Virus record (IMG/VR): IMGVR_UViG_3300045988_172855
DNA length: 64,000 nt
Source of the DNA: a virus
Direction: 5' to 3' (one strand)
Shown here: one piece after another, positions 4,823 to 64,000 of the stretch
Position numbering within the stretch: position 1 is the first letter of the stretch
Layout: each line of letters begins with the position of its first letter
The notes under the pieces: model-generated
Seen by the model: the letters and a program-made list of their open reading frames with translations, nothing else
The model's database searches: none
Told to the model about the DNA's origin: nothing
Translations under genes and position numbers: made by a program

Positions 4823-4829
4823 AAATTAT

Positions 4830-4858
4830 TAGAAAGAGTGGAACTTAATGTTCCACTC
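4830..4858 (-). terminator. rho-independent terminator
   Basis: 9-bp stem gagtggaac / gttccactc with a 5-nt loop, followed on the minus strand by TTTCT. Confidence 0.6.
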
Positions 4859-4869
4859 AATCATTGTTA

Positions 4870-20312: not shown

Positions 20313-20801
20313 TTATAAATTTTTTCTACGACCATATTCTGCAATTAACAACGAATCTGCAAAATTATCGTCTTCATTTTTACATCTTTCTGTTCTTCTT
20401 AAATCTACAGTTGGAAATAACTTGTGACAAGCCATAAAACTCATTACCTTTTTATCGTCATTCTTAGCAATACCTTGGTGCATCACCTTTTGCCATGTTT
20501 TAGGTGCAACCTTTGTATATGGTAATCCTAATGTTGATAAAGTACCTTCTATCACTCCTACGATCCAACCGAAATTAAAATTTGATTTCGCAGATGAACC
20601 AAAAATCGAATGTACGTCCTCGAGTACAACATGACACCTTCCTTCGTAAATGCTCAAGTCGAATAAGTTTTGACTTATTTCAACAACGTCAACGACTTTT
20701 GAATTTTTCAATAAAGGGAAAGATTTAATCACTTTCCCATCTACGTTTACAATCGATACAAATCCTTTTTGACCAGGATCGATCCCTATATACACTTTCA
20801 T
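20313..20801 (-). CDS. ruvC: RuvC-like Holliday junction resolvase
   Basis: N-terminal IGIDPGQKG, central VLEDV, and C-terminal DNFADSLLIAEYG. These are the acidic catalytic positions of the RuvC fold. Confidence 0.7.
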   Translation of the reverse strand: MKVYIGIDPGQKGFVSIVNVDGKVIKSFPLLKNSKVVDVVEISQNLFDLSIYEGRCHVVLEDVHSIFGSSAKSNFNFGWIVGVIEGTLSTLGLPYTKVAPKTWQKVMHQGIAKNDDKKVMSFMACHKLFPTVDLRRTERCKNEDDNFADSLLIAEYGRRKNL

Positions 20802-31044: not shown

Positions 31045-32656
31045 AATCTAATAATATATCTCCTTCTTTTAATTCACCTGCTTTAACTATCATCTTTTCT
31101 TCGTTTCTAAAGATACGAACAAAACTTGTACAAGGTATAATAATAGGTGATGAACTTTCTTCGTTAATGATAACCTCTTCAATCTTATCGTGACGTATCA
31201 AACGACCTGTTGTTAAGAATCTTTCAAATAGTAGATCGTAATCAAGAGGATTAATATAATTCAATCCTAGTAAATACGAAATCAAACATCCACAAGCTGA
31301 ACCACGACCAGACCCAATTAGAATGTCTTCTTTCTTACACCACTTTACAATGTCTCTAAGCATTAAAAAATAGTCGACTACTTCACCATCTTCGATTACC
31401 TTCATCTCTTTTTCAAGTCTCTCAACAACTTCATCTTCAGAATAATTTTCAAGTATCTCAGGATGTTCTTCGAGTCCTTTGATTATGAGATCTTCAAACA
31501 TAGCAATATTATCTTCATATTGTAAAGCCTCTTCGTCAGTCATGTAATATACAGGCATGTGTCTATTTTGAGTCTCTATTACAAAGTTACATTCAAAAGA
31601 AATTTCTTTCAAATTTTGAACAGCTTTTTCAAATGTATCAAAAAACGCCTCATCGTCTCCGAACAACTTACCAAGCTCTTCAAAATATTCTTGATAATTT
31701 TTCATATATTGATTATCACTTTCATAAGTAACGACCTTCGCTAAGGTATTCATTTTTCTCTTAATAGGAGACCATTCTTTTTCAACATAATACGCATCAC
31801 ACATTGCAACCGGATTCATTTTACTGTCAAAAAACTTTTTCAAATTTTTCAAGTAAAATTCATCACGATCATCTTTTTCGTATTCAACTGTATCTAATTG
31901 ATAAAATGAAATAATTTTCTTGAGTTCTCTTGGAATCTTCGTATAATCAATTGTTTTAGGATCCCATATAAAAATCAAACCCTCTTCACTCTCAAGAATA
32001 TCTTTTTCTGTTACATATTCTGTATTAGTCTTGTTCATCAATTCATTTAGATGTAACAAATTCTCCCAGCCTTTTTGATTTTTAACAAATGCTTTGATTG
32101 TGTAACGAATATCGTTTACTTCATCGGAAACCTTAATCTCCAAACCTTGAATAGCTCGTATTCCATTTTTCTGACACGCAGTCTGAAATTTCATTGCTGC
32201 AGCAAGTGTACCTTTTTCACACAAACCTAAACTAGTGATCCCTAAAAATTTAGCTTTCTTACACCATTGATCGTATAGACACATTCCATTCATCAATTCG
32301 AACGGTCCATGAATACCAAGATATGTATCTATATAAAGACTTTCGTCTACCAATTTAGCTCTACCGATCCATTTTACAGGTTGTAGCTTTACAGACTCTT
32401 CTTTACCTTTTTCTAAAGCATACCAAACAGATCCAAAGCAAAAAATATAGTAATCGTATTCAGTTCTATCACACGCCCAATTAAAGTGTTCATCAAAATA
32501 AACACCTCTTTCATTTTTATCCCACTTAAACGGTTCAAAGAGTTGATAAACTTTATCGTTTATATCAATTAAAAATTCATCTTCGTCTTCTAAAACTTTA
32601 TATTCAATAAAATTGTCTTCTAAATATTGTAGAAGTTCGGCAAACAATTCCCTCAT
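31031..32656 (-). CDS. dnaE: DNA polymerase III alpha (DnaE-type), N-terminal part (PHP-like domain)
   Basis: GSGRGSACGCLISYLLGLNYINPLDYDLLFERFL matches DnaE PGRGSAAGS...[11 protein letters not shown]. The ORF then carries a 55-aa non-homologous tail and stops, overlapping the next ORF by 14 nt. Confidence 0.8.
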   Translation of the reverse strand: MRELFAELLQYLEDNFIEYKVLEDEDEFLIDINDKVYQLFEPFKWDKNERGVYFDEHFNWACDRTEYDYYIFCFGSVWYALEKGKEESVKLQPVKWIGRAKLVDESLYIDTYLGIHGPFELMNGMCLYDQWCKKAKFLGITSLGLCEKGTLAAAMKFQTACQKNGIRAIQGLEIKVSDEVNDIRYTIKAFVKNQKGWENLLHLNELMNKTNTEYVTEKDILESEEGLIFIWDPKTIDYTKIPRELKKIISFYQLDTVEYEKDDRDEFYLKNLKKFFDSKMNPVAMCDAYYVEKEWSPIKRKMNTLAKVVTYESDNQYMKNYQEYFEELGKLFGDDEAFFDTFEKAVQNLKEISFECNFVIETQNRHMPVYYMTDEEALQYEDNIAMFEDLIIKGLEEHPEILENYSEDEVVERLEKEMKVIEDGEVVDYFLMLRDIVKWCKKEDILIGSGRGSACGCLISYLLGLNYINPLDYDLLFERFLTTGRLIRHDKIEEVIINEESSSPIIIPCTSFVRIFRNEEKMIVKAGELKEGDILLDYDND

Positions 32657-42136: not shown

Positions 42137-42783
42137 TGCAATTCAAATGTATTTCTAAAACGTATTTTCTTCTTATTCGACAATTGTGTCTGACCTTCTC
42201 CTCTCAATTTCTTTATATAAGAAATTAAAAGCAAAGCATTGGCTTTTGTATCTGTCAAAGCTCTATGTGCATCTACAAGATCTATCCCTGCTAATTGACA
42301 ACATGTACTAAGTTTATAATCCATTTGTTCTAAAGCAGATAAATGAGCCCACGATAAAGTATCGATCCAATATTTGACATAATTATCAATATTATCTCCC
42401 ATATCTTCAAAAAAGTTTCTTAAAAAAGGAATATCAAACGATATATTGTGTCCTCCCATACTACACATTTGTCGAGGATTTTTGTATTTTTTAAATATGG
42501 CACAAACTTCTTTGTAAATTATTTTAAGTTCAACACCATTATTTTGTCTCACTTCCTTTTTAATCCCATGTACTTCTTCTGCTTCCTTTGTGTAAATTAA
42601 TTCTTCTTTATACTCATCTTTAAAAATGAAAGATTTTTCTTCAATAATTGAAAGATTTTCACAATCAATTACGACTAAAGCTAATTCAACTGCAGCTATA
42701 TCGTAATATGCTCTTTGTTTACTATTAGGTAAACCTCCTGTTTCAAAATCAAACATTATAATATACTTAGCAGATGTTTTCAT
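42133..42783 (-). CDS. DEDDh 3'-5' exonuclease (DnaQ / epsilon-like)
   Basis: ExoI is MFDFETGG, ExoII is GHNISFDIPFL, and ExoIII is AHRALTDT. Confidence 0.8.
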   Translation of the reverse strand: MKTSAKYIIMFDFETGGLPNSKQRAYYDIAAVELALVVIDCENLSIIEEKSFIFKDEYKEELIYTKEAEEVHGIKKEVRQNNGVELKIIYKEVCAIFKKYKNPRQMCSMGGHNISFDIPFLRNFFEDMGDNIDNYVKYWIDTLSWAHLSALEQMDYKLSTCCQLAGIDLVDAHRALTDTKANALLLISYIKKLRGEGQTQLSNKKKIRFRNTFELQ

Positions 42784-43516
42784 TTATTTCTTGTTTTAAA
42801 AATTCAACTAATTCTTCGATATTATCAGATACACTATTCGATTTCTCAAGATTGTCTTTTGCCCATAGAGGCTGTAAGTTTCTGTAATTGAAACAGATAC
42901 GTTGGTTTTCCTCTTTTGTCAAATCGAAATAAGAACACGGAATGATATGATCAATCTGCCACTTTCCTTCACCTTTTCCTAAATTATCCCACGTCATTCC
43001 AGGTTCAAATTGCATCTCGAGATGAGCTTTCAGCTCATCGATCGAGCAACCGAGAAGATTGAGAGTGTGATCTGATTTCTGATTGTTTTTAAGTGCTGTC
43101 AGAAGTCTACCTCTTAAATTAGAACTAATTTTATAATTTATATCACTAATTCTCTTTTCCTTGTAATATAAAGACGATTTCCCTAAAAGATTTCGTCTTT
43201 TTCTAGACTTTTCGTTAGACTTCTTTCCTTTTTCAGATCGTCTATACTCATCATTTATTTTTCTATAAACAACCTTACCTTTTTCAGAAGTTCGCCATCG
43301 TTTATTCCTCTCTCTTCTCAACAACCTTCCTCTTTCGGAACTAACATAATTCTTTTTACAATTTTTACATTGACAATCATAACCATCTGAACAACGTTTG
43401 TTCATATAAAAATGATCAAGTGACAATTTACATTTACAAACTGAACAAACCTTTAATCCCGTCTCACAATCAAATTTCATCTTTATAAACCTGATTATTT
43501 TCGTTCGCAAGTACAT
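42767..43516 (-). CDS. HNH endonuclease with an N-terminal Cys-rich region and basic repeats
   Basis: Contains WQIDHIIP...NLQPLWAKDN (HNH). The true start is probably MKFDCETG at 43480. Confidence 0.7.
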   Translation of the reverse strand: MYLRTKIIRFIKMKFDCETGLKVCSVCKCKLSLDHFYMNKRCSDGYDCQCKNCKKNYVSSERGRLLRRERNKRWRTSEKGKVVYRKINDEYRRSEKGKKSNEKSRKRRNLLGKSSLYYKEKRISDINYKISSNLRGRLLTALKNNQKSDHTLNLLGCSIDELKAHLEMQFEPGMTWDNLGKGEGKWQIDHIIPCSYFDLTKEENQRICFNYRNLQPLWAKDNLEKSNSVSDNIEELVEFLKQEINENIC

Positions 43517-50077: not shown

Positions 50078-53000
50078 TTAAAACCAATTAGGAAATTGTT
50101 GTTTAAATAAATCGTAATAAGCAGCTCCTGTACAACCACTAAAACAAGCTGTACTATCTTTAACTTGATCTATTTTAATAATATTTTTAAATATCGGAAC
50201 AGATACTGTAGATATACACAATGGCATTGATAGAGCAATCTGTGTATTACCTATACCGCTATCAGAAATCCCTGGATAATAGATTATTTTAGAACAGCCT
50301 TCAAAAGCACGATCCCAATACAAACAAGTTGTATAAAGACCACTTGTAACTGTCACTTTATCACTTCCTATAGTATATCCAAATAAATCATTAATATTTC
50401 CTTCGAGATTTGTACAATTATAAAACATTTGTGAAATACGTATAATTTTATTCGCATTGTTAGGTGTAACAGATATTCCAACACTTCTCAAGTTTTTACA
50501 AAGAGCAAAACATCTTGTATAGTCAGAACAATCTCTACTAGTAAAGAAATTTGAAGGAATTTGTGTTACACCGCTATTCATAAACGTTTCGACACAAACA
50601 TCGGCATTAACTAGATTAATCGTTGATATATTCAACAAATTTGTTGTACCTAAAAATGTTCTAGTGTAATTATTTAATTCAGTAGATGTGATAGAAAATA
50701 AATTAGAACCTACACTTGATAACCTACTGCAATTAGCAAAAGCTAATTCGAAAGTTGCATTTCGAACAGATCCTGAAAATACACTCGAAGGTATTGATGT
50801 AATTCCTGATAACTCAGCAAATTTTTTTGCTATAAAAGATCCACCTGAATAAGCTGAAATCGTACAAGGCGAAGATAAATTACCGCAACCGCTAAACATA
50901 TCCTCACAACTCGTAATGTTAACAGCATTGATGTTTGCCTGAATGTTTGATAAATTACTGAGATTAAACATATTAGACACATCGCAACCTCTAGATGAAG
51001 GAGATATTGTTCCGGTAACCGAATTTAAATTCTTAGTATTTTGGAAACAATACGTATAACTCTCGATATTTGATCCACCTAATACGTCATTCAAATTAAT
51101 AGATCTTGACAAGCCTGAAGATGCATAAGTATATTTATAATTTGTTCCAAAAGAAAGACATCCCTTTGGAACGCTTCTCAAAGAAGAACATCCAAAGAAA
51201 AAACGTTCAGTTGAACCTGACATCAAACTAGTAGTCCAACCCGGTATTGATGTTAAATTTCTACATCCATCAAATGCTGATTGAGACCAAGATGTATTCA
51301 CTTTCGAAGTAAACCATTTCAAAACTCTAATTAAACTTGTTTTAAAATTCGAACTTAAATCTCCCCATTGTAACGTAGCATTCATTCCGTTAAAATCAAA
51401 TAAGATTCTGTAAGTTCCTTGTTTGCTGTACGTATGACTTTTCTCACCTAAAGTTTGACTTCCATCACCCCAACTTACTCTTAGATTATTTATTCCTGTT
51501 GATCCTGTATTTTTAATAGGTAGTACAACGCTACTTGTTAAGACTTCGAGTAATGCACCGTCACCTTCCATAGTAATGAAAATTGTTTTTGTTGTCTCAT
51601 TAGCACCTACCGAATAACTTCCTCTTTCTGAAAAATAATCAGGCGAGGTGGCTGTCCAAGAATAAGATGCTGCACAAGGAACGTACCAAGATACTTGTCC
51701 ATTACTTCCTGTTACACCTGAACTCACATTGTCTTCAACTGTTACACCTGAAATAGGCATATTATTGGTATCGACAACTCTATATGTAACCTGACAAACA
51801 TTTCTTTTCAATGTCAAATTAATATAAACATCGTCGTTACTTATAGAACCCGATCCATTTTGACTTTGATATCCTGGCTTAAACGCCTGCCAATTAAATG
51901 AGAATCCTGACAAATAAGGACCAAAATTAGCCTTACCGTCTCTTGTCGTATACTTCGTTTGACTGTTTAATTGAATAGTTACATTATCGACAGGAGAACC
52001 TGAATCGTCTTTTACAGTAAAATAAACTCCGTAATAATCAGCACCTAAACCAATTTCAAAACTAGGATTCTCTGTATCGACAACAAATGATTCTGATCTA
52101 GCTCGATAAGTAGGTTCTTTACTTGCTGTACAAACTAAAGAACTACTTGACAACGGCACATTATAAAATGTCGCATTACCACCTCCATCTGTTACACTAG
52201 ATGAATTGTTAAAAGATACAGATGCGCCTGAAATTGGTAATTTATTATTTAAATCATATACATTAATTGTAACTATAGTCGTTTTTCTGACAAAATTCAA
52301 AGGTATATTCATTTTGCCATATACTGAAAAACTTTCTGCTAAATCATAATAATATGCTCCGTATGTAGCTCGATAATTGTAATTACCTTGTTTTAAAGTC
52401 ACTTTAGCTTCACCGTCAATATTTGTTGTCAATATTTGACCTGTATCTAAAGTAATTGTCGCTCCTGAAAGAAAATCGAATCCTTCTTTTGCTACAAATG
52501 TAACTTCAAATTCGGGCTCAGGTTGTTGAGAGATATAAATAGTATATCTATTATCATCTCTCTCTTCTATATTAACGTTACCTGAAGTTGAGTAATAATC
52601 TTGTTTAGAACAAGTCCATTGCCATATACCAACAACCAAATCCCATGTTTCCGCTACACCATTAATGTTGGTGTATTTTGTTTGGCCATTAATCGTTACC
52701 GCAGCATTTTCTAGAAGAGCTTGACTTTCTTTATCTTTTACAGTTACAGCAAGTTTTCCTCTAGCTTTTTGTAAATCAACTACAATTGCAATAGATTGAT
52801 TTGTTACAACTGCAGTTCCTGTTTGGATTTGATAATCCTTTCTACTTATAGTCCAAGGATAATTACCAGGCACTTTATTAAAAGTAGCGTTACCTTTACC
52901 ATCAGTCGTTAGCGTTTCTTCATCCTCTCCTATCCCTAAAACAATAGGTTGATTTGCTACAGGTTGATTATCAATTCTAACAGTAAATACGATATTATAG

Positions 53001-55507
53001 GTTATCAATTTCATCGTCACCTTAACAGTCTGATTTGCTCCGTTCACAATAACGACTCCTTGTCGAATGTAATATCCTTCTTTGTTTACGGTCCAATTAT
53101 ATGAACCTGAAATCCTTACAAATTGAGCAGTCCCTTCTGCTTGAGTAGTGATTATTTCTGTTCCGATTACAACTTGTGCACCATCAAGAGGTTGATCGTC
53201 CTGATCAACAACAGTAAAGTCAATCGTATATCCTATTTGAACAAGATTGATTTCTTTAACGACATCTTGATCGACGACCTCTATAGAACCTTCTTGTGCA
53301 TAAAACTCAGTCTTAGAAACTTTCCAATTATATGTTCCTGCAATCTCAACAAAATTTGCACGACCATTATTGTCTGTCTGAATAGTAGCTCCATTAAACG
53401 TTACATTACACTTAGATACAGGTAACGAATTATTCTTAACCAGGAACGTTACATTGTACTTAGGAATTGGTTTAAACTGAACATCAATAACTGCATTACC
53501 ATATATCTCAAAATCGCTTTCAACTGTAATATAACCAGGTTTAACTACCTTATAATGATATGTTCCTGCAGCTAGTACAAATCCTGTTGCTAATCCTTGC
53601 GCGTTTGACGATCCTGTTTGATCGTTTATACTCTCTCCCGTTACTAATACAGATGCACCTGAAACTGGATCAACACCATCTCTAATTCTAAACGTTACAT
53701 TATAATAAGGTATAGCTTCCATTTCTACGATTATGTTTGTACTGTCAACAATTTCGATAGTTCTTCTAATCGTATAATAATCTTCTAATTCAGCTACATA
53801 TTGATAAATACCTGGAAATACATCAAACGTCAATATTCCACTTGATTGAGTATATTTTGTTTTCCCTGCAAAAGTCAATTTAACATTTGATAAAGGTTCT
53901 TTCGTAATTTTATCTCTTACATTAAACGTAACAACCCTTTCATAGGCAGCACCTTGTAATTGAATATATTCTACAGCATCTTCTGTTACTAATAGAGAGT
54001 TTTGTACTTCTTCGAAATTTTCAGCCTCAACTTTATATAAATATTGTCCTCTAGGAAGAATAATTATTGCTTCTCCATTTACATCTGTTTTCAAAGATTG
54101 CCCAAATACTGTTATAGTTGCATTTGGAATATATTTATTTCTATTTGAAAAAACCTTAAATAAGATTCGATAAGACTCTTCTCCTATATATGGACGAATT
54201 AATTCGCTGCCAAAAATATTTTTATATCCTATCAAATACTTTTTCAAGTAATTTTCAAGAGTTTGTTTTCCTTGATATGAATTGTTCTTATAATATGCTG
54301 CAATAATATCTCTTTCTCCTAAATAACCTTGAGAAAACGGTAGATATAACGGTTTTACTTTAAAATCATAAACATATACATAAGGAGTATTTCCACTCGA
54401 TCTATCTTGGATAAAAATAGGCGCTATATATTTCATAGTAGGCATTAATGATAATGCTCTACCTGAAGGAAAATTCAAACTTGGTACATCAACGAATTTT
54501 TCGTTATTTGACAAAATAAGTCCTCGTATATTATAATAAATACCTTCATTTAAAAGATTTAAAAATTCTGTCGTATGAAACCACATAGAACTTCCTGTGA
54601 TTTGTCCATTTTCAATAACTCCCATTTCTATAGGATTTCCATCTGTAGTTTCATAGCCTGCTACACCAAACTTGAGATTCTGAGTGTCTGTAGCTGCAGA
54701 TATCTTAACTTGCAAACTAATTTCATAACTCATATTAGGATCAACGATAATCAATTTGTCACGATCAACTCGTCCGTCAATACCAACAACTTGATTGCCG
54801 AAGAAGGTCATTGCATTAAAGATCTCATCACCTTCATTTTCATCTTGCGTTATACTAACACTTTCTGAAACTAGTAGTGGGTAATTACTAAGACTCTCTA
54901 CTCCTAAAGTATACTCAAATCCTTTCGTTACATTCATCACTGTATCAGTTCGATCCCATGTAGGTGAGCTATATCCCATTGACCAACCTGTACTTTCGGG
55001 TCTTAATAAAGCAAAGATAAATTCATCTACTGAATTATATCTTATAAGTCTCAGCAATTCTCCTAGAATCTCACCTTCTGTGTTTATAATATCTAATCTT
55101 CCTCTTTTGGAATACTCTTCGAGATAATTATAGAACAAATACTCCATTTGTTCTTGACTATCAACTAAAGCTGTCACAAGACCTCTGTCCTGAATAAACA
55201 GTTCAAACAAAATTCTATTAGAATCGATTTCTTTATATTTTCGCGCATACAAAACTACGAGTGCGAACATATGTGTTACCGTACCCCAAAATGCCTTAAA
55301 ATCAGGATTATCTTTTTTATTGATAAAAGTCGGAAGGATACCATTTCCTTCCAATTTTGCCAATACATTTTCAGCCCAACCCATTACAGCTTTATCGTTG
55401 ACTTCAAAAAATCTGCTGAATATGGTATTGTTATATACAGGAAACTTTGTCGGTTTAAATAAGTCTCCACAAGGATGTTGTTCTTTCGGATCAAGCGCTT
55501 TTTCCAT
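50078..55507 (-). CDS. giant tail fibre / baseplate-associated adhesin (1809 aa)
   Basis: The N-terminal ~460 aa form a unique domain. About a dozen tandem ~90-aa CarboxypepD_reg-like beta-sandwich repeats follow (V.V.D....P..GA.V...G....TD..G.A.F....G.Y.Y.V...GY). Next comes a PKD-like motif (VSWGDGSQT...HTYSKQGTY). The C-terminus carries BspA-type leucine-rich repeats (FDGCRNLTSI, FFGCSSLRSV, FANCSRLSSV, FALCKNLRSV, FYNCTNLEG). Confidence 0.7.
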   Translation of the reverse strand: MEKALDPKEQHPCGDLFKPTKFPVYNNTIFSRFFEVNDKAVMGWAENVLAKLEGNGILPTFINKKDNPDFKAFWGTVTHMFALVVLYARKYKEIDSNRILFELFIQDRGLVTALVDSQEQMEYLFYNYLEEYSKRGRLDIINTEGEILGELLRLIRYNSVDEFIFALLRPESTGWSMGYSSPTWDRTDTVMNVTKGFEYTLGVESLSNYPLLVSESVSITQDENEGDEIFNAMTFFGNQVVGIDGRVDRDKLIIVDPNMSYEISLQVKISAATDTQNLKFGVAGYETTDGNPIEMGVIENGQITGSSMWFHTTEFLNLLNEGIYYNIRGLILSNNEKFVDVPSLNFPSGRALSLMPTMKYIAPIFIQDRSSGNTPYVYVYDFKVKPLYLPFSQGYLGERDIIAAYYKNNSYQGKQTLENYLKKYLIGYKNIFGSELIRPYIGEESYRILFKVFSNRNKYIPNATITVFGQSLKTDVNGEAIIILPRGQYLYKVEAENFEEVQNSLLVTEDAVEYIQLQGAAYERVVTFNVRDKITKEPLSNVKLTFAGKTKYTQSSGILTFDVFPGIYQYVAELEDYYTIRRTIEIVDSTNIIVEMEAIPYYNVTFRIRDGVDPVSGASVLVTGESINDQTGSSNAQGLATGFVLAAGTYHYKVVKPGYITVESDFEIYGNAVIDVQFKPIPKYNVTFLVKNNSLPVSKCNVTFNGATIQTDNNGRANFVEIAGTYNWKVSKTEFYAQEGSIEVVDQDVVKEINLVQIGYTIDFTVVDQDDQPLDGAQVVIGTEIITTQAEGTAQFVRISGSYNWTVNKEGYYIRQGVVIVNGANQTVKVTMKLITYNIVFTVRIDNQPVANQPIVLGIGEDEETLTTDGKGNATFNKVPGNYPWTISRKDYQIQTGTAVVTNQSIAIVVDLQKARGKLAVTVKDKESQALLENAAVTINGQTKYTNINGVAETWDLVVGIWQWTCSKQDYYSTSGNVNIEERDDNRYTIYISQQPEPEFEVTFVAKEGFDFLSGATITLDTGQILTTNIDGEAKVTLKQGNYNYRATYGAYYYDLAESFSVYGKMNIPLNFVRKTTIVTINVYDLNNKLPISGASVSFNNSSSVTDGGGNATFYNVPLSSSSLVCTASKEPTYRARSESFVVDTENPSFEIGLGADYYGVYFTVKDDSGSPVDNVTIQLNSQTKYTTRDGKANFGPYLSGFSFNWQAFKPGYQSQNGSGSISNDDVYINLTLKRNVCQVTYRVVDTNNMPISGVTVEDNVSSGVTGSNGQVSWYVPCAASYSWTATSPDYFSERGSYSVGANETTKTIFITMEGDGALLEVLTSSVVLPIKNTGSTGINNLRVSWGDGSQTLGEKSHTYSKQGTYRILFDFNGMNATLQWGDLSSNFKTSLIRVLKWFTSKVNTSWSQSAFDGCRNLTSIPGWTTSLMSGSTERFFFGCSSLRSVPKGCLSFGTNYKYTYASSGLSRSINLNDVLGGSNIESYTYCFQNTKNLNSVTGTISPSSRGCDVSNMFNLSNLSNIQANINAVNITSCEDMFSGCGNLSSPCTISAYSGGSFIAKKFAELSGITSIPSSVFSGSVRNATFELAFANCSRLSSVGSNLFSITSTELNNYTRTFLGTTNLLNISTINLVNADVCVETFMNSGVTQIPSNFFTSRDCSDYTRCFALCKNLRSVGISVTPNNANKIIRISQMFYNCTNLEGNINDLFGYTIGSDKVTVTSGLYTTCLYWDRAFEGCSKIIYYPGISDSGIGNTQIALSMPLCISTVSVPIFKNIIKIDQVKDSTACFSGCTGAAYYDLFKQQFPNWF
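51640..54100 (-). repeat. tandem array of diverged ~270-bp units encoding CarboxypepD_reg-like domains
   Basis: The periodic protein motif is visible roughly from aa 470 to aa 1290 of the 1809-aa ORF. Boundaries are approximate. Confidence 0.5.
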
Positions 55508-55522
55508 TTTACATTCTTTTAA

Positions 55523-55560
55523 TGCATAAAAATACCAAACAATTTTATATCTACAAACAA
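55523..55560 (-). promoter_or_regulatory. promoter box candidate for the 1809-aa gene, just outside the left inverted repeat
   Basis: Minus strand reads TTTGTTTGtagatataaaattgtttggTATTTTTATgcattaaaagaatgtaaaATG, with 19 nt between TTG and TA. Confidence 0.4.
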
Positions 55561-55561
55561 A

Positions 55562-57037
55562 TTGCTTATTAATTCACAATCAATCACGCTCTATGCCCTC
55601 TACATAAGCTCATCAGGGTGGTTTGCTCCTGTGACGAGTAAGTCGATAGATGTAGAAAATATAAATAATTATTATACAGGTTTACAAGGTAAAGATAAAT
55701 TAAAAGAAGGTACTTCTTCGTTTGGATATTATTTTGATAATCATATCGATTATCGAGGTAATAGTCAACCCATGTTTAGTGTTGCAGATTTTGGTAGAAG
55801 TGGTATATCAATTAATTTGGGTTTTTATTATATTAATGAGTATAATGAAATTATTTCAGATAGAAGTGAGCAATTTCATGCCAATTCTAACAAAGTTATT
55901 TTAAGAGGAAAATTATTGGTAGCTTCCAATCAAATTAACAGTATGGTTGCTGCTATAGGTTGTGTTTCGAGCTCTGATAATCAATTTTCAAGATCTATTT
56001 GGATGGTTTATAAGGGAACGGGTTATAAAGTACGGAGAACTACGAACTTTTCCAGTTCTACTAATTTATTAAAAGCGTACAGTAGTTACACTTTACAAAA
56101 TGCGATATATTGGGGACAATGGAAAGGTAGTGATAATTATATAGGAAGTTATTCAGCTAATCCCTTAGGACATTCACTAACAGTTGGGTACATATTATCA
56201 GATCCCAATTATGGTACTAGCGGAGAAGTTGATATATCGTTAGGTGGTATAGTTGTAAATTTTCTCAAGGCGATATTAATAGAAACTGAAACAGTAACGA
56301 GTGGAACTGTAGGAATATATGCTAAAATCGTTCTTTTAGGCATCCATGATGATCGTAGTAAAACATTGTATTACGTGAAAATACGGTGTTATAATTCAGG
56401 TAGTGTATCGTACATTCAAAAAGTAGGTGATATAGTTTCTTATAAATCAGTCAACCGTCCAATGGGAGCTAATTTATGGTTTACGACTGATAGAAAATGG
56501 ATGTTTTTTCCACCTTCAGGTGATAGTTTTTATCCTAAAGGAATAAACTCATATTATGCTAATGGTCAACAATTGATAGTAGATGGTTCAACTTCTATGC
56601 CTGATGATGTTAGTTATCTGAATTCATCTCACACATCTGCAATGAGATCTGCTTTGCAAAATGTATACGTATTAGAGATTTTGTTTAACAAGACTCAAAC
56701 TAAAATGATTGTATTAACAAATACAACTGGAGCTGCATTTGAAATTGGAGATTTTGAAGGTAATTACAATCCTGATGCTATGTATTGTTTTCAATTGGTA
56801 AATAATTCTTGGGTACAAATTTCAACTCAAGCTATAGATAGACAAAATGTTTTAGCTTCGTATAATTCAACTGGAAATCAAGGTATCAAGTATAAATCAA
56901 GTCTTTCTCTTTGTGATAAATCAAATGATCTCGGTTCATTAGCTATGTTTGGTAGTCAATATAGTTTTAACTGGGCATTTCCTGCAAATAGCAAACCGAC
57001 TGTATTTTATACATCAAAAATAACGTGGGGTGAATGA
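55562..57037 (+). CDS. silent alternative C-terminal cassette of the giant tail fibre (no ATG start)
   Basis: This is the only + strand coding segment in the window. The track start is a TTG, and the first in-frame Met is about 70 codons in. Codons 6-27 (QSITLYALYISSSGWFAPVTSK) are nucleotide-identical to the fibre gene at 58373..58438. The rest is homologous to the fibre C-terminus, for example HTSAMRSALQNVYVLEILFNKTQTKMIVLTN versus HTSAIRSALSNVYVQEIIFNKTSDKMIVLTN. Confidence 0.75.
   Translation: MLINSQSITLYALYISSSGWFAPVTSKSIDVENINNYYTGLQGKDKLKEGTSSFGYYFDNHIDYRGNSQPMFSVADFGRSGISINLGFYYINEYNEIISDRSEQFHANSNKVILRGKLLVASNQINSMVAAIGCVSSSDNQFSRSIWMVYKGTGYKVRRTTNFSSSTNLLKAYSSYTLQNAIYWGQWKGSDNYIGSYSANPLGHSLTVGYILSDPNYGTSGEVDISLGGIVVNFLKAILIETETVTSGTVGIYAKIVLLGIHDDRSKTLYYVKIRCYNSGSVSYIQKVGDIVSYKSVNRPMGANLWFTTDRKWMFFPPSGDSFYPKGINSYYANGQQLIVDGSTSMPDDVSYLNSSHTSAMRSALQNVYVLEILFNKTQTKMIVLTNTTGAAFEIGDFEGNYNPDAMYCFQLVNNSWVQISTQAIDRQNVLASYNSTGNQGIKYKSSLSLCDKSNDLGSLAMFGSQYSFNWAFPANSKPTVFYTSKITWGE
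55577..55642 (+). repeat. left arm of the 66-bp perfect inverted repeat
   Basis: caatcaatcacgctctatgccctctacataagctcatcagggtggtttgctcctgtgacgagtaag is the exact reverse complement of 58373..58438. Confidence 0.95.
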
Positions 57038-57047
57038 TTCACCCCAC
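57025..57047. terminator. bidirectional hairpin terminator shared by the two convergent cassettes
   Basis: 10-bp perfect stem gtggggtgaa / ttcaccccac with a 3-nt loop, tga. That loop is the stop codon of the + cassette. T-runs flank the hairpin. Confidence 0.65.
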
Positions 57048-57052
57048 TTCTT

Positions 57053-60000
57053 TTACCATATTGTATTTGTATAAGATATATAATAATCCACATTATAAGC
57101 AGGTTTACCCCAAGAAAGAGTCCAATTACCGTCATTATCCTGTAATAATAACGAAGGTCTTTTTAAAGAGTCGCTTTCGTTATAAGAATTCCACAAATTA
57201 ACTCTATCGACAATAGAAGAAACGTTTATCCATGATGCCGTATTTGCTTGATAAACAAATGCAAACATTCTATCAGGATTATGAGAATCTCCGTCGAATG
57301 TAAAACTATTTGTAACAGCAAATGAACCTGAAACACTATTCGTCAATACGATCATTTTATCAGACGTCTTATTGAAGATAATTTCCTGTACATAAACATT
57401 TGATAATGCACTTCTAATTGCAGATGTATGAGATGTATTGAGGTAAGAAGCGTTATTTTCAATGTAATTTGTAACATTGCTTGTTATAAATTCTTTGTTA
57501 CCATAATAGGAATTTAATCCTTTTGGATAAGCAATAGATGTATTTTGAGATTTAGGAACAAAAAATATCCATTTTGTATCAAAACTAACCCAAATATTGG
57601 GTCCGAGATTTTGATTAAAAACATGATTTGAAGGAGTTTCGTAAAATGAAGATAAAGAACCTAAATGTCCACTACTATTGACATTGAAATTACCCGTAAC
57701 AATTTCAAAAATATAAGAATCATTGCCTCTTAATATCAAAAGTGCTTTTTTATCAGCGAATCCTATCAATTTTATACCATAATAATCACTTGAAATATTG
57801 TCAGGAAGTACGTGAGCATTTGTAGAACATGATCCTGATAGCAATGCTACAGTATTTTCCCTTATTGCTCTTGATTCAAATGCTTTAGAGAGAACTAAAC
57901 AATAGTCTGAATGATAAATATGACAAAATGCATGAGTACTTGTGTAAGTATTAAATACTCTTTTTATTGATCTTATACTTGTATCTCCGAATGATCTTGC
58001 TGATCGACCTTCGTTTACTCCTCTATATGTAATCGTATTCACATAATAAACACTGTTTGCATGCCATGTAAAATGTTTAAATATATTCACACTATAACCA
58101 TCAGATCCCTTTGAACTATAAATGCATCTTGTTTTAGAAACCTGTGATGTTGTAAATTGCGAATAATTCCTAGTATTGCCGCCATCGGACGGATAAAAAT
58201 ATGTATCTATTGAAGAACTTGCATTTGAAACACTAGCTAAAAATAAACTAGAATTAACGCCAGGTGTATATGGGAAAAAGGCACAACAACTACTAGTATT
58301 TGCATTTTCCCTGCTATATCGATTATTATCTGATATACCGGTATATACTGTTCTAATAGCCCTAGCTACTTTCTTACTCGTCACAGGAGCAAACCACCCT
58401 GATGAGCTTATGTAGAGGGCATAGAGCGTGATTGATTGATCAGAGATGAAAGAAACTGCCGACCCGCTTCGATTAGGAACGGGGAAATTATTTGTTCCAG
58501 TTCCTCCCCAAGCAGTCGATCCCCCTGCTTCAGTCCAGTAATTACCCGGTCTGATTTTTAAAACCAATTGACCACTTGCGTTAGTTGTTCCACTATAATT
58601 TACTGCACTATTATTATTTGACAGTTTTACGATACAACTTGCAGCAACCAATGATGTATTATCACTTCTCTTTACATTGATAGTTAAATTCATTTCAGAA
58701 GGTACTAATTTCAATGTAAAATTAGTTGTGTTCGCGTTAGTTGTGTTCAGTATATCGTATCTTGATGCACTAATGATATATCTATTAGTTAATCCTGAAA
58801 CATATACAGTCGTTTGTCCATTTGAATTTGTAGTTAAATTCTGTGCTGATGCTGACGTAGCGTTACTACCATCTATACCATATACAGTAACAGTTGCTCC
58901 GCTAACATTTGCATTTGTCAAACTATTCTGAACCGTTAATGTTAAAGCCTTAATAGCTGTAAAATATTTTATTCCCGTTACATTGCTAAAATTATATGTA
59001 GGAGTGACATTATACATCGTATGAGTTGTCGTTGTACCTGTTACGAAATAAGCATTTGAAGCTCCCATTGTCGTATTCAAACCAGCTATAAACGTATAAT
59101 TTGCAATAACATAATTTGAATTATGATCAATTCCTAATGTTACAGTGGTAGCTACACCTGCAGTTGTATAAACCGGTTTAAATAAATTTACACCACCTGC
59201 TTTTAAATAAAAATCTCTTGATCCTTGAGTAGGTACTCTGAAATACCATATCAAAATAACATTCTTAGTCAATCGAACAGCACTTTTTTGAATAGAAGCT
59301 GTTGGCATTGTAATATCTACAGACTGCGCTCCCCAATAAGAAGTTCCTCCACCCCAACTCAAAGTATAAGTTCCTTGAATCATCGGACCAAACGAAACTT
59401 GACCGGAAGAGTTGGTGTTGCCACTAAATGTAATTGACGTCTTGTTTTTATTAGTGAGTTTTACAGGACAACCATTTGCATTTCCTTTATCTGCACCTTG
59501 ATAATTATCTTTAATTGTTATTGTAATCGAAGAAGAAGTTTCACTTAAAGTTACATTCCAAGGAGAGGCTTGAGTAGCTGGAATCGATCCTGATGCTGTG
59601 TTATACAAACTCTTAGAAAAGCTGTAACTATAATTAGGAGTTCGTCCTCCTCTATAAACCGTAGCGTTACCACTACCATCTGTAGTTACAGTTTGTCCAA
59701 ATAATGTTGCACTTACGCCACTTATATTCCATCCATAATTAGAACTCTTCACATTTGCAACGAATTGCGTTTTAGACGTCATTGTCATTGTCCACGATTC
59801 ACCTTCTCTTGTCCAAACGTGAGTTTGCGTTCCGTTACTATAATATCCGGCGTTAGCTTTTGGAGTGTAAGAGTACGTCAATCCTGCATAAACTGTATTT
59901 GATTTTCTACCACTTCCATCTAATGTTAACTCAGTTACAGCTCCTAATACAGTTCTATTTACAATTGAATTTAAAAATGCCCCTGTATAAGTTCCTAACT

Positions 60001-63000
60001 TTTCCATTACAGTTAGTGTTACTGTAACAGTTGTTCTCGTAAATGTTATATTATAAGGAGTAGATTGTCCGTGAGTTACAGTTCCGATGTAAGCATTAAA
60101 ATAAGTTGCACTACCATTAATAGGTTTGTCTAAACCACTTCGATAAAATACTGCATTACCACTTCCATCTGTAGTCTTCGTCTGATTAAAATATGTCAAT
60201 GAAGCTCCGCTAATATTTGTATTAGCAGGTACATTGCTCTTAACATTTACAGTTATTTGAGCAGAACATGCCAAAGACATATTAAACGTTTGATTAGCTG
60301 ATGTATAAGTATAACTTTGACTAGGATTACTATAATAATTTGAATGATCAACTACCGCAAAAGTTGTTGGAATACCAAGATATGTTGTTACTGTAGTTGC
60401 ACCATTTATATCCAATGTAATTTTAGAAGAACTTCCATTCTTCGTCATTGTTAATGATTTAGATGCATAAACGTTTGTTCCAGCTATATTCGGAATAGTT
60501 TCTACGACCTTTATTGATACAGTCGCTTGATTTCGACTCATTACAATATTAAAAGGAGAAGTATTCGAAGGAGTAATTGTTCCACTATAATTTGCATGAT
60601 ATGTAACTGTCGAAGTTATCGATTTATCCAAACCACTTCGATAAAATACTACGTTCCCATCCGCACCTGTCGTTTTCGTCTGATTAAAATATGTAACAGA
60701 TGCGTTAGATAGATTAGCTGAAGGAGCATTACTCTTAACATTTACAGTTATTTGAGCAGAACATGTAAGTGTCATATTCCAATTCTCATTGACTGTATTA
60801 AACGTATGTACTTGAGTTGAATTATTATAAAAATTAGCATTATCTACAACAGTAAATGTCATTTCTGTCCCCAAATAACCGTTGAAAGTTGCGTTTCCTG
60901 AAGAGTCAAGAGTTAAAGTTCCCTTTGCACTGCCTGCAGACCAATTTATTTTTTTAGAAGCGTAATTCCAGGTTCCTGTTACTCCTGGAATAGATTCTAC
61001 AACATGAATTTTTACCGGATTGGCTGCACGAGTCAAAATTACCTTTATAGGAGAGACCTGATCACTTGTAATTAAACCTGAATAAGATTCTAGAAAATCT
61101 GCTGATACAGATATATTCCGATTCAATCCACTTCGATAAAATGTCGCATTTCCATCTGTATTCGTCGTCTTAGTTTGATTGAAGTATGTAACAGATGCGT
61201 TAGGTAAAGGTTCTCCAGCTGGAACATTAGCTTCTACATGAACAACTAAAGTTGTAGAACACGTTAAGATCATTGTCCACGATTCACCTATTGTAGCAAA
61301 CGTGTGACTTTGACTAGAATTACTGTAATAATTAGGATGGTCGATTACTGCAAAAGTTGTCGGAATCCCTAAATAACATTTAAATGATATTGCACCATCA
61401 TCATTTAATGTCAACGTTCCGTTCCCGGCTGCATTCGTATACGTGATCTGCTTGTTTGCATAATTTAAATTACCTTCAATGTTAGGAATCGCTTCTTTAA
61501 CATTAATCGTTACTGACTGCAACTCTCTAAACAATTTGATTGCTATAGGAGATGAGTTTGTTGCTTCGATATTTCCGGTAGTTGTTCTATAATCATCTTT
61601 TGTTACAGAATAATCTTTTGTTAAAGCTGATCGATAAAATACTGCATTACCACTACTATCTGTGGTTTTTGTTTGTAAATTATATTGTATATTTGCACCA
61701 GAGATATTAACGTTTGAATAAGTATCTTTAACGTTTAATGTAATCTGTGCAGTTACATTCAAATTCATATTCCATACAAAACCATCTTCTGTCCACGTAT
61801 ACGACTGCGTAGGATTGGAATAAAAATTCGCATAATCATCGACTGTAAATGTATATTCTAATCCTTTGATCAATGTCATAACTGCAGTACCATTTTCGTC
61901 AAGGCTTATGGTAATTTCACCTGCCTTTGAATTCATCGTCAAAGTTTTATTTGACAATGCAGCAAATACTGAACTTGATCCGTATAGCTCTCGAACCTCA
62001 ATCTGAGCATTAATTAACTCATATTGAACCTCTACTTCGAGTTCTGTTCCTGCTTCTGTTTGCGGATGATCAAAAACTCCTGTCGTAACTTCACCAGCTA
62101 ATACAGAATATTGATATGTACCCGTCAAAACATTCGGAATATTAGCTACACCATCGATATCTGTCGTTCCTTCGTAAACTAAAGATTCGTCTTTAGTATT
62201 CGTGATTCGCACTATTATATTTTCAGGAGGCAAAATTCCACCAGTAGAAACTGTAAATTTTACCGGATAGCTTTTTGCTTCTAAAGTAAATTCTAATTTC
62301 GTTTCTTGTCCTGTTGGCGTTAGCGATCCTGTAAGATCGTTGTAATATTGTTTTCGGATTGTATAATTCATTGACACAGGAGACAAATAAATATAAGCAA
62401 TACCTGCATTATTCGTCTCTTGTATTTGATCAACTGACATTCCTGTAAACGTAACTTGCGCTCTTTCTAAATCTCCATATAAATCACTTGAAACGTGAAC
62501 AGGAATTCGTTTAGAACATGTATAAGTTAGAGTTATGTTTTGAGTTGCTCCATTAGAATAATCTAAAGTAAACGGATCTCCTTCTCCTTCGTAAAAACCA
62601 ACCGGTTGAATCGCAAATCGCTCAGGTAATCCAGCGTAAACCGTTTTTGTTACCTGTCCATTTGCATTTGTAGTTAGATTGCTTCCTGAAGAAGTATTTT
62701 TTTCAACATAAAACGGTGACAAAACCAATCCCGCTTTTACAGGATTAGCTGTCGAAGAAATTAACGGAAGAATTTCTTTAATGGTTGCAGTTACAGAAAT
62801 CGTTCTTCTTACTGCAACCATTTCAACAGGATTATCTAAAGGAAGATAAATATCTTTAGTTGCAATATCGTAATTATTATTTGCACTACCAATTGTAATT
62901 CTATATTCTCCTGGCGGGATATTGAATTGTCCGTTTCCTGACGAATTAAAATCTCCATTATCGTCTGTTGTACCTGTAAAAGTGTATTGTTGAGAAGTTG

Positions 63001-64000
63001 TTCCTCCCCACAAACTAGTTACACTTACAGAACAGTTGTTTGCAGAATGTTCGTAAGGAACAGTTGTTAAAACGGATAATTCGAAATTAATTTGACTATA
63101 CTGAAAAATCAAATCCAAATAATTATTCTGTAAAGGCGGTGTAAATCGACCACTTAATACTGTATGATCTGCTACTTTTGCAGAATAATTCATTGTTACG
63201 GGAGAAATATATATACGAGCAATTCCATTTTCATTTGTAATAACAGTTTGATCTAAACTCATTCCCGTCACTGAAACGTCTGCATCAGAAAGCGGTCTCA
63301 AAGTATTTGCTTGTTTCGCTCTTAACTCAAGTTGTTTTGATGCAATAATTCCCATTTCAACAGTAGGATTGTTTATAAAATCCCAAGTTGAAATAAATAA
63401 TCCATCGTTTTCATAAAATCCTGATTCAGCTACCGTCAATTCGTATTGAACTCCTGGCATTACAACGACATTGACTATTCCATTTGAATTCGTTGTATAT
63501 TGTTTAACTGTATTATCGCGAGTACTCTTGACGTTAATCTTTAAACCTTCCTTTACAGGCAAGTAATTAATTGATCTCTTTTGATCAACTTGAATACTAG
63601 CTGTTATTTGATTGTCACCTGTAGTAACTGTTACATCAATTGCTGCACTTCTCGGTGTCACATCTCTTGTTTCAGGATTTACTTCTACAGTTGCTTGTGA
63701 GCCGTCAAGTGTAATGAATGTCTCAGCCGGAACGGTATTGTAATTTAATCTAGCTCCTCCATAAATAAAATCGTATGGCTCATCTACTCCACCTTCTTTT
63801 AATCTTCGAAAAGTTCTAACATAATCATTTAAATCAAATTCAGCACCTGAATTAGGAATTATAAGGTTTGTAGGAACATTTGCTATATAAATATATTCGT
63901 CTGTACCGGCGACTTCAATTGTATTAGAACCTGATGACCTTACTGTAGTCGCATCACCACTTAAATTAGGAATATTTTCTGTAACGAGAACGCTGTTAGT
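57053..64000 (-). CDS. giant tail fibre / receptor-binding protein (more than 2315 aa; the 5' end lies beyond the window)
   Basis: The track starts it at a GTG (63661), but hand translation shows the frame stays open with no stop from 63661 to 64000 (...PAETFITLDGSQATVEVNPETRDVTPRS...). The body consists of tandem CarboxypepD_reg-like modules. The C-terminal 440 aa follow the right inverted repeat. Confidence 0.75.
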   Translation of the reverse strand, partial: TNSVLVTENIPNLSGDATTVRSSGSNTIEVAGTDEYIYIANVPTNLIIPNSGAEFDLNDYVRTFRRLKEGGVDEPYDFIYGGARLNYNTVPAETFITLDGSQATVEVNPETRDVTPRSAAIDVTVTTGDNQITASIQVDQKRSINYLPVKEGLKINVKSTRDNTVKQYTTNSNGIVNVVVMPGVQYELTVAESGFYENDGLFISTWDFINNPTVEMGIIASKQLELRAKQANTLRPLSDADVSVTGMSLDQTVITNENGIARIYISPVTMNYSAKVADHTVLSGRFTPPLQNNYLDLIFQYSQINFELSVLTTVPYEHSANNCSVSVTSLWGGTTSQQYTFTGTTDDNGDFNSSGNGQFNIPPGEYRITIGSANNNYDIATKDIYLPLDNPVEMVAVRRTISVTATIKEILPLISSTANPVKAGLVLSPFYVEKNTSSGSNLTTNANGQVTKTVYAGLPERFAIQPVGFYEGEGDPFTLDYSNGATQNITLTYTCSKRIPVHVSSDLYGDLERAQVTFTGMSVDQIQETNNAGIAYIYLSPVSMNYTIRKQYYNDLTGSLTPTGQETKLEFTLEAKSYPVKFTVSTGGILPPENIIVRITNTKDESLVYEGTTDIDGVANIPNVLTGTYQYSVLAGEVTTGVFDHPQTEAGTELEVEVQYELINAQIEVRELYGSSSVFAALSNKTLTMNSKAGEITISLDENGTAVMTLIKGLEYTFTVDDYANFYSNPTQSYTWTEDGFVWNMNLNVTAQITLNVKDTYSNVNISGANIQYNLQTKTTDSSGNAVFYRSALTKDYSVTKDDYRTTTGNIEATNSSPIAIKLFRELQSVTINVKEAIPNIEGNLNYANKQITYTNAAGNGTLTLNDDGAISFKCYLGIPTTFAVIDHPNYYSNSSQSHTFATIGESWTMILTCSTTLVVHVEANVPAGEPLPNASVTYFNQTKTTNTDGNATFYRSGLNRNISVSADFLESYSGLITSDQVSPIKVILTRAANPVKIHVVESIPGVTGTWNYASKKINWSAGSAKGTLTLDSSGNATFNGYLGTEMTFTVVDNANFYNNSTQVHTFNTVNENWNMTLTCSAQITVNVKSNAPSANLSNASVTYFNQTKTTGADGNVVFYRSGLDKSITSTVTYHANYSGTITPSNTSPFNIVMSRNQATVSIKVVETIPNIAGTNVYASKSLTMTKNGSSSKITLDINGATTVTTYLGIPTTFAVVDHSNYYSNPSQSYTYTSANQTFNMSLACSAQITVNVKSNVPANTNISGASLTYFNQTKTTDGSGNAVFYRSGLDKPINGSATYFNAYIGTVTHGQSTPYNITFTRTTVTVTLTVMEKLGTYTGAFLNSIVNRTVLGAVTELTLDGSGRKSNTVYAGLTYSYTPKANAGYYSNGTQTHVWTREGESWTMTMTSKTQFVANVKSSNYGWNISGVSATLFGQTVTTDGSGNATVYRGGRTPNYSYSFSKSLYNTASGSIPATQASPWNVTLSETSSSITITIKDNYQGADKGNANGCPVKLTNKNKTSITFSGNTNSSGQVSFGPMIQGTYTLSWGGGTSYWGAQSVDITMPTASIQKSAVRLTKNVILIWYFRVPTQGSRDFYLKAGGVNLFKPVYTTAGVATTVTLGIDHNSNYVIANYTFIAGLNTTMGASNAYFVTGTTTTHTMYNVTPTYNFSNVTGIKYFTAIKALTLTVQNSLTNANVSGATVTVYGIDGSNATSASAQNLTTNSNGQTTVYVSGLTNRYIISASRYDILNTTNANTTNFTLKLVPSEMNLTINVKRSDNTSLVAASCIVKLSNNNSAVNYSGTTNASGQLVLKIRPGNYWTEAGGSTAWGGTGTNNFPVPNRSGSAVSFISDQSITLYALYISSSGWFAPVTSKKVARAIRTVYTGISDNNRYSRENANTSSCCAFFPYTPGVNSSLFLASVSNASSSIDTYFYPSDGGNTRNYSQFTTSQVSKTRCIYSSKGSDGYSVNIFKHFTWHANSVYYVNTITYRGVNEGRSARSFGDTSIRSIKRVFNTYTSTHAFCHIYHSDYCLVLSKAFESRAIRENTVALLSGSCSTNAHVLPDNISSDYYGIKLIGFADKKALLILRGNDSYIFEIVTGNFNVNSSGHLGSLSSFYETPSNHVFNQNLGPNIWVSFDTKWIFFVPKSQNTSIAYPKGLNSYYGNKEFITSNVTNYIENNASYLNTSHTSAIRSALSNVYVQEIIFNKTSDKMIVLTNSVSGSFAVTNSFTFDGDSHNPDRMFAFVYQANTASWINVSSIVDRVNLWNSYNESDSLKRPSLLLQDNDGNWTLSWGKPAYNVDYYISYTNTIW
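58373..58438 (-). repeat. right arm of the 66-bp perfect inverted repeat (inside the fibre gene)
   Basis: Exact reverse complement of 55577..55642. It starts on a codon boundary of the fibre ORF. Confidence 0.95.
59450..61800 (-). repeat. about five tandem copies of a diverged 495-498-bp unit (165-aa two-domain module) inside the fibre gene
   Basis: The landmark cgataaaat (FYRS on the minus strand) recurs at 60141, 60639, 61134 and 61632, with a variant near 59650. The protein module is ...VTYFNQTKTT.DGN..FYRSGL...TFAVVDH.NYYSN.SQS.T.... Confidence 0.7.

Follow-up and report, generated by a model that had tools for sequence, protein, structure and literature searches.

The fibre-tip locus

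We analysed a 64,000-nucleotide (nt) stretch of IMGVR_UViG_3300045988_172855, referred to here in its entirety as the window, which belongs to a human-gut phage with a full genome of ~105 kb. Towards its right-hand end lies a giant fibre gene that appears to have two alternative C-terminal tips. One tip is fused to the fibre body, the other is parked on the opposite strand, and the pair is bracketed by inverted repeat arms. An earlier note on this DNA had proposed an invertible switch, and we consider it very probable that the locus is indeed a real invertible fibre-tip switch. Its parts are listed below from left to right (aa, amino acids; IR, inverted repeat).

50078..55507, minus strand: second fibre-like protein of 1809 aa with CarboxypepD_reg / Ig-like repeats, the fixed left border of the switch
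55508..55576, minus strand: 69-nt leader outside the segment, with the promoter-like GTATTTTTA at 55527-55535, 28 nt upstream of the next gene
55577..55642, plus strand: left repeat arm (IR-L), at the 5' end of the parked cassette
55643..57037, plus strand: cassette B ('S' family), the parked tip, 464 aa plus stop
57025..57047, unstranded: bidirectional terminator-like hairpin with a 10-bp stem (6 G-C pairs), a loop of 3 and T-runs on both strands
57053..58372, minus strand: cassette A ('E' family), the expressed tip, 439 aa, stop codon at 57053-57055, 95% identity to the tip expressed by L010
58373..58438, minus strand: right repeat arm (IR-R), inside the fibre gene and in frame, encoding QSITLYALYISSSGWFAPVTSK
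58439..64000, minus strand: constant body of the giant baseplate-J/fibre protein, which passes the window edge (full protein ~3200 aa)

The two arms at 55577-55642 and 58373-58438 are perfect reverse complements (66/66), both are in frame and both read QSITLYALYISSSGWFAPVTSK over 22 codons. Their identity falls to background abruptly at either end. In all of this the earlier note was correct, as it was in the raised G+C content of the repeat (32/66, or 48%, vs 32.7% window-wide). The same holds across all three repeat types found among the relatives described below, where the repeat has 38-50% G+C vs 28-33% in the segment. This would fit biased gene conversion, as weak evidence. The window contains no further long inverted repeat. 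Beyond the two arms, the 24-nt repeat core (allowing up to 3 mismatches) was found nowhere in the window (0 expected), so that there is no third copy.

Cassette B is read from the only long plus-strand open reading frame (ORF), 55562..57037. As had been described, this ORF starts with TTG and has its first Met about 70 codons in, at codon 71; 18 open codons precede the repeat. Cassette B has neither a start codon of its own nor a phage promoter motif on its strand. Its length of 464 aa (plus strand) agrees with the earlier note, whereas cassette A, given there as 440 aa, is actually 439 aa long (minus strand). The start of the fibre ORF had been placed at 63661, which was wrong: the reading frame is open up to the window edge. 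In close relatives the fibre is 3196-3223 aa long with an N-terminal Baseplate_J domain, and CarboxypepD_reg-like repeats were found in the fibre body. Cassettes A and B are 45% identical in their C-terminal 149 aa and hardly alignable elsewhere, and neither has a Pfam, PHROG or PDB match (PDB by profile search). They converge, as had also been noticed, on the single hairpin at 57025-57047, which remains central after inversion. The segment consists of these two convergent cassette ORFs only and holds no chaperone or assembly gene. Its neighbours are the fibre body and the 1809-aa fibre-like gene, with no adjoining invertase gene.

The leader contains one copy of a recurrent motif, GTATCTTTA(C/G)(A/G), which occurs 11 times on the gene strand (minus), at 162, 3204, 5355, 9279, 10404, 15745, 19953, 31116, 36521, 48631 and 55535 (also at 37511 and 38992). 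Ten of the 11 copies sit 12-140 nt upstream of gene starts. The motif is embedded in 23-56 nt direct-repeat families, of which the copies at 37482 and 38963 match at 56/56 positions, and it is probably a promoter element of the phage. A scan for sigma-70 promoters stayed at background (24 found vs 24.4 expected).

Flipped isomers in related genomes

The clade with this arrangement has ~50 contigs in IMG/VR; relatives are given L numbers here. They are represented by contigs of ~105-107 kb, from human-gut metagenomes. We classed each repeat arm by its upstream sequence (fibre body or 69-nt leader) and by the family of its downstream cassette. The cassettes of the window's subclade form two groups: cassette A is a member of group 'E' and cassette B of group 'S'. 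Further flipped genomes were sought through stand-alone E-family ORFs in a protein search. This comparison, which the earlier note had proposed, revealed that 5/16 contigs of the window's subclade are flipped exactly at the repeats, while the other 11 are arranged as in the window. The flipped contigs are the following.

L016 (105,859 nt) compared with L001: flanks collinear at 98.6%; 2926-nt segment with both arms inverted, 97.1%
L203 (101,624 nt) compared with L001: parked cassette 98.8% to the expressed cassette of L001; expressed cassette 95.6% to the parked cassette of L001
L014/L082 compared with L004: flanks 96% and 92.6%; segment inverted exactly between the arms
L204 (MEGAHIT k141) compared with L004: expressed tip 98.5% identical to the parked tip of L004
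L009: partial contig whose parked slot is occupied by an E-family cassette

The flipped junctions are complete in L016, L203, L014/L082 and L204 and partial in L009. The S family, to which cassette B belongs, is fused to the fibre body in L014, L016, L203 and L204, and in L014 a single ORF (22..4947) joins body, repeat and S-family tip in one frame. Inverting 55643..58372 had been predicted to join the body to cassette B and to park cassette A, and natural genomes with that arrangement exist.

The left flank of L016 is 99.7% identical to the window, that of L009 is 99.6% identical to L002, and that of L082 is 92-94% identical to all others. The flipped genomes do not group together as closest relatives, and the flank comparison thus shows that the flips are independent and polyphyletic, with at least three events among genomes that differ by ~1% beside the switch. 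Contig ends in or near the repeat (L008, L070) were not counted as mixed orientation, because short-k assemblers break at the repeat anyway.

Conservation and selection of the cassettes

In the window's subclade the perfect repeats are 65-72 bp long, reaching 81 bp at 91% identity in L004, and the 60 nt of leader that adjoin the repeat are 100% identical across all relatives. The arrangement is an old one: two more subclades share the architecture at the homologous protein position (Q-S/T-I-T...), with different repeat DNA. In the subclade of L005 and L006, a 68-bp repeat encodes VAQTITIYAVYVNTAGWYGTLET, while in that of L074, L077 and L079-L081 the perfect repeat is 44-80 bp long and encodes ...SISLVKDQSITIEALKVG.WV. 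Most genomes of the three subclades have perfect arms of 61-80 bp, and mismatches shorten the others. Among the three repeat types, DNA likeness is limited to what the conserved peptide demands.

Clustering of 61 cassettes at 70% identity gave 15 families, five of which occur in both slots of different genomes (in two subclades). One family is parked in L074 and L077 yet expressed in L079, at 98% identity. The parked cassette is an intact ORF in every relative, and the frame through the repeat is kept in all genomes. Most pairs of parked cassettes have a ratio of nonsynonymous to synonymous divergence (dN/dS) of 0.29-0.53. Most informative pairs that include a parked cassette fall between 0.15 and 0.53, vs 0.33-0.43 for expressed pairs. 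Two near-identical cassette pairs (dS 0.007 and 0.016) give dN/dS values of 2.05 and 0.81, which are unreliable at such low divergence. By this measure, the ratios show that parked cassettes are under purifying selection like expressed tips. Considering that they are also intact, parked cassettes appear to be expressed often enough to stay functional.

Each cassette is also replaced on its own, without its partner. Between L004 and L014, dS is 0.017 for the S cassettes and 0.455 for their partner cassettes, and the left and right flanks of the switch differ in their nearest relatives. The region of the fibre tips is a hotspot at which phages exchange sequence. L072 and L073 (IMGVR_UViG_3300045988_180769 and _181155) have no segment at all: only 55 nt separate the fibre stop from the homologue of the 1809-aa gene, the fibres exceed 3660 aa, and there is neither a parked cassette nor an inverted repeat. 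No repeat was found in L083-L089 either, of which L083 has a different gene set upstream of the homologue of the 1809-aa gene. Together with L072 and L073, these genomes provide the clade with natural 'no switch' controls.

Nested within the first is another inverted repeat, 27 nt long and encoding YPKGLNSYY, in the conserved C-terminal part of both cassettes (9490-9516 / 10475-10501 in L001, 4441-4467 / 5428-5454 in L014 and 56465-56509 / 57560-57604 in the window). Its arms are 96-100% identical in some relatives and degenerate in the window (76%). Nested inversion at this repeat could exchange only the last ~170 aa and so give four tips rather than two.

Gene conversion between the repeat arms

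A comparison of the two arms within each of 11 genomes revealed 11 repeat haplotypes. At six positions of the repeat (12, 21, 28, 32, 33 and 42), polymorphisms shared between genomes were always concordant between a genome's two arms; synonymous changes are among them. There were only five arm-to-arm mismatches, all singletons, vs 28.6 expected with shuffled partners, and none of 10,000 shuffles gave five or fewer. Conservative site-specific recombination exchanges strands at one fixed point and copies no mutation between arms. A mutation present in both arms must therefore have been copied, which implies gene conversion through heteroduplex. Since the arms evolve in concert, homologous recombination acts between them. 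To judge from these haplotypes, the concordance shows that gene conversion homogenises the arms.

Recombinase search and general recombination genes

The earlier note had seen neither an invertase nor a chaperone gene. Both absences were upheld in the window, and that of an invertase extends over nearly the whole genome when the remainder is read from relatives with Pfam and PHROGs. Pfam searches of the window, which took in minus-strand ORFs of at least 80 aa, found no Resolvase, Phage_integrase, transposase or reverse-transcriptase family. None of these families was found in nearly all of the ~41 kb outside the window, which we read from relatives by walking along L125/L128, L180/L181, L090/L092 and L023. 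These loci are 96-100% identical in their overlaps with the window or with one another, and the scans of them took in ORFs of at least 60 aa, or at least 130 aa on the non-coding strand. PHROGs gave no integrase or invertase in the window (save a few ORFs already assigned by Pfam) or in the ~60% of the remaining genome that was scanned. The ORF that bridges the gap between walked loci had no significant match.

General recombination genes are present. Four of them are contiguous at 20313..24806 on the minus strand, and UvrD is also encoded.

20313..20801, minus strand: RuvC-like Holliday-junction resolvase (PHROGs)
20798..22804, minus strand: SbcC (PHROGs)
22786..23772, minus strand: RecA (Pfam RecA, E=2e-73)
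23772..24806, minus strand: SbcD (PHROGs)

This recombination module is a candidate for the machinery of the inversion.

Proposed mechanism and alternatives

Inversion by the phage's own RecA/RuvC machinery had been offered in the earlier note as a fallback. It is now the reading we favour, because gene conversion homogenises the arms. The fibre body (~2740 aa) ends in 22 codons of which an inverted second copy stands before a promoterless and start-less second tip. In the mechanism we propose, recombination between the 66-bp arms would flip the 2730-bp segment, joining the body in frame to cassette B and leaving cassette A parked. In both states, the fibre transcript would stop at the bidirectional terminator in the middle, and the next gene would retain its own promoter-like element just beyond the segment. 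The crossover would be made by homologous recombination between the arms, with no dedicated site-specific invertase. Its likely agents would be the phage RecA, the RuvC-like resolvase and SbcCD, possibly with host equivalents. Inversions would thus arise from the same homologous process as the conversions, as its crossover outcome. In each infection cycle, a minority of the progeny would come to carry the alternative tip, a form of bet-hedging against variable hosts. We infer that switching is frequent within a population and that the two tips differ in receptor specificity.

What the subclades keep is the length of the repeat and the identity of its arms, while its sequence is not kept, and homology fits this pattern better than a binding site does. 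The minimal length for efficient RecA-type recombination was reportedly put at ~25-90 bp, depending on the pathway, by Shen and Huang in 1986. The perfect arms, mostly 61-80 bp, exceed the minimal RecA-type recombination length, and repeat length may be tuned by selection. We think it somewhat likelier true than false that the locus is a homology-driven, invertase-free two-state switch of the giant fibre tip, which we presume to be receptor-binding.

Several points weigh against this mechanism. Conversion between the arms is no proof of the route of inversion: the P1 C segment keeps identical repeats of 0.6 kb, yet Cin inverts it at cix sites. The inner 24 nt of the repeat, TGGTTTGCTCCTGTGACGAGTAAG, are invariant in the subclade save for the last base, synonymous positions included, and could be a protein-binding core; at 1-6% divergence, however, no more than one or two changes are expected in it. 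Many phage ORFs have no family match, and a novel recombinase may be among them. Beyond the window, coverage of the genome comes from relatives, and Bacteroidales, the likely hosts, encode numerous invertases. The orientation is lopsided, with 11/16 contigs alike. Moreover, the orientations are known from separate contigs, and the flips could be rare events fixed per lineage. As regards tip function, an AlphaFold2 model of cassette B, built from 8 sequences, had a predicted local distance difference test (pLDDT) score of 46 and was unusable.

Alternatively, the switch could be the same but with a site-specific recombinase acting on the repeat core, while homologous gene conversion would do no more than keep the arms alike. 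Such an enzyme could be a Tsr-type tyrosine or Mpi-type serine recombinase of the Bacteroidales host, or an unrecognised phage protein. To our knowledge, an enzyme of this kind serves every fibre inversion system characterised so far (Mu Gin, P1 Cin, e14 Pin and p15B Min), and P1 is a case in which a dedicated invertase occurs together with long identical repeats. The near-invariance of the inner 24 nt in every subclade arm examined and the number of unmatched phage ORFs are in line with this, as is the enrichment of gene-altering inversions beside recombinase genes across bacteria (PMC9881135). Conversely, the Pfam and PHROGs scans of nearly the whole genome gave no recombinase family, and the three repeat types have no DNA motif in common beyond what the peptide imposes, so that three specificities or co-evolving enzymes would be needed. 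A site of 26-34 bp would not require perfect identity over 61-81 bp, and no palindromic core was evident on inspection of the repeat. We regard a site-specific recombinase as the strongest competing explanation, though less likely than homologous recombination.

Less probable still is that there is no programmed switch, the parked cassette being a spare whose inversions and replacements are rare recombination accidents fixed under host selection, or its ORF encoding a separate protein. The predominance of one orientation would be expected from rare accidents, as would the mosaic genomes described above, with their unequal cassette divergence (L004/L014) and their left and right flanks of different nearest relatives. 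However, flips arose independently at least three times among genomes with flanks no more than 1% apart, and the arms are identical in every lineage of the three subclades, which rare accidents would not maintain. The parked ORF is under the same purifying selection as the expressed tips, and the frame through the repeat is intact in all genomes. A separate protein is further contradicted by the 70 codons without an ATG and by the lack of a promoter motif on that strand. We consider this explanation improbable.

That the flipped contigs are assembly artefacts, in which the assembler took the wrong path through a short inverted repeat, is hardly credible and was rejected: the largest default metaSPAdes k of 55 is below the repeat length (66-72 bp), and L009, L016 and L203 have SPAdes-style contig names, but flipped L204 comes from MEGAHIT at k141, where single k-mers cover the entire repeat and orientation is therefore set by real sequence rather than by repeat resolution, the MEGAHIT k119 contigs L003 and L004 show the other state, the repeat is spanned by 100-150 nt reads, and both the selection on parked cassettes and the concerted evolution of the arms are independent of assembly orientation.

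The phage and other genes of the window

The minus strand holds every gene of the window except the parked cassette. These genes include a replication set (a split DNA polymerase III alpha with an intein, primase, helicase, NAD-dependent ligase and RNase H) and a group of helicases and recombination genes (SNF2, UvrD, RecA, SbcCD and the RuvC-like resolvase). They also include 7-deazaguanine pathway genes, a terminase and two giant fibre-like proteins. No tRNA genes were found in the window. Early genes occupy the walked region outside it, together with a structural module (portal, a weak SU10-type capsid match and, ahead of the fibre gene, other unannotated proteins). A NUDIX protein is encoded there as well, as are HNH and GIY-YIG endonucleases.

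A tblastn search with the terminase gave only distant matches, an unannotated 19-kb faecal contig at 66% and Bacteroides thetaiotaomicron phages, DAC16 among others, at 37% identity. One relative encodes a BACON domain protein. Since the terminase resembles those of B. thetaiotaomicron phages and a relative carries a BACON domain, a Bacteroidales host is likely, as far as such similarities can indicate. GenBank phages held no megablast match to the locus. In 185,579 bacterial and archaeal genomes, both the repeat core and the terminase were without a match, and thus gave neither a sign of a prophage nor a clue to the host. The lack of an integrase and of matches in bacterial genomes fits a virulent phage.

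DNA polymerase III alpha (region 27760-32656) is encoded by two overlapping minus-strand ORFs, 31031..32656 and 27760..31044; the intein, which has a LAGLIDADG domain, is in the second. GTP cyclohydrolase I, a radical-SAM protein (QueE-like) and a 6-pyruvoyl-tetrahydropterin synthase (QueD-like) are encoded consecutively at 34409-36487 (minus strand), a row that suggests 7-deazaguanine modification of the phage DNA. HNH / endonuclease VII-like genes lie at 42767..43516 in the window and at 726..1625 in L023. A GIY-YIG homing-endonuclease ORF is present in L092 (4751-5428) and missing at the same place in L090.

Implications

Gut Bacteroidales evade phages through phase-varying capsules and surface proteins, which raises the question of how virulent gut phages keep pace. 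The locus suggests a phage-encoded answer: the fibre tips form a reversible pair, an arrangement that a widespread clade has conserved. If true, this would be the phage-side counterpart of Bacteroidales surface phase variation. We offer tentatively, as a proposition with slightly less than an even chance of being right, that a virulent gut phage clade carries a programmed, invertase-free host-range switch that combines a 61-81 bp in-frame repeat, homologous recombination, gene conversion and at least 15 tip families. If homologous recombination suffices, programmed inversions would be possible without a nearby recombinase gene, and repeat length alone could set the switching rate. Searches for invertons that are keyed to a recombinase gene or to short repeats would then miss such loci. 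The matched natural pairs of fibre tips would also be useful for receptor mapping, and the locus provides a compact blueprint for phages whose host range can be switched.

Comparison with known systems

The closest parallels in architecture are Mu G/Gin, P1 C/Cin, e14 P/Pin and p15B Min, which likewise have an invertible segment with inverted repeats inside a tail-fibre gene. As in those systems, one of two C-terminal parts continues a constant N-terminal part while the other is parked antisense, and the presumed outcome is a switch of host range. In those systems the gix/cix/hix crossover sites are 26-34 bp long, with a conserved core, and are assisted by a Fis-bound enhancer. The locus described here differs from them in having no invertase gene, either adjoining or genome-wide by Pfam and PHROGs, and no chaperone/assembly (U/U'-like) gene in the segment. 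Its repeats are coding, evolve in concert and are subclade-specific in sequence. Whereas the Gin/Cin/Pin/Min carriers are temperate phages or a plasmid, the carrier here is an apparently virulent 105-kb gut phage.

Two other types of variable locus were considered and rejected. A shufflon has several segments parted by 19-bp repeats and an adjoining rci gene; here there is one segment with two arms and no third copy, and the scans gave no Phage_integrase family. A diversity-generating retroelement was rejected because Pfam found no reverse-transcriptase family and the variable parts lie downstream of repeats that are identical and inverted.

Among cellular systems, the invertons of gut Bacteroidales come from the same ecosystem, and in them in-frame inverted repeats also exchange the coding ends of surface or specificity proteins (PMC9881135; PMC10028968). 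Gene-altering inversions were found in scans of bacterial genomes, where the tail-fibre cases confirmed by long reads are annotated as prophage (PMC9881135), and intragenic invertons have been described in gut bacteria (PMC10028968). A first hint of viral invertons has also been reported (PMC13501310). Bacteroidales invertons are usually tied to a tyrosine or serine recombinase gene, while the switch described here lies in a free phage genome without one.

Inversions without a dedicated enzyme are already known from the pneumococcal Spn556II/SpnIII hsdS locus (PMC4948785). Only IR1 of its three repeat pairs needs PsrA, and the other two pairs still invert after single deletions of 14 recombinase genes, PsrA and recA included (PMC4948785). 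There, too, inversions between in-frame repeats exchange specificity domains. The difference is that hsdS belongs to a bacterial restriction-modification locus with a recombinase gene present, and that deletion of recA had no detectable effect, so that its other pairs are not known to be RecA-driven. The searchable literature held nothing on the switch of this clade or on an invertase-free fibre switch.

The L and S segments of herpesviruses and the plastid inverted repeats flip-flop by homologous recombination, between kilobase repeats that are kept identical by gene conversion. We propose the same here, namely that homology alone suffices and that gene conversion keeps the repeats identical. 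In keeping with this, the arms are of pairing length and are kept identical, no recombinase family was found, and general recombination proteins are present. Unlike herpesvirus and plastid flip-flop, in which no coding sequence is re-joined, the phage inversion would use a coding repeat of 61-81 bp to re-splice a structural gene.

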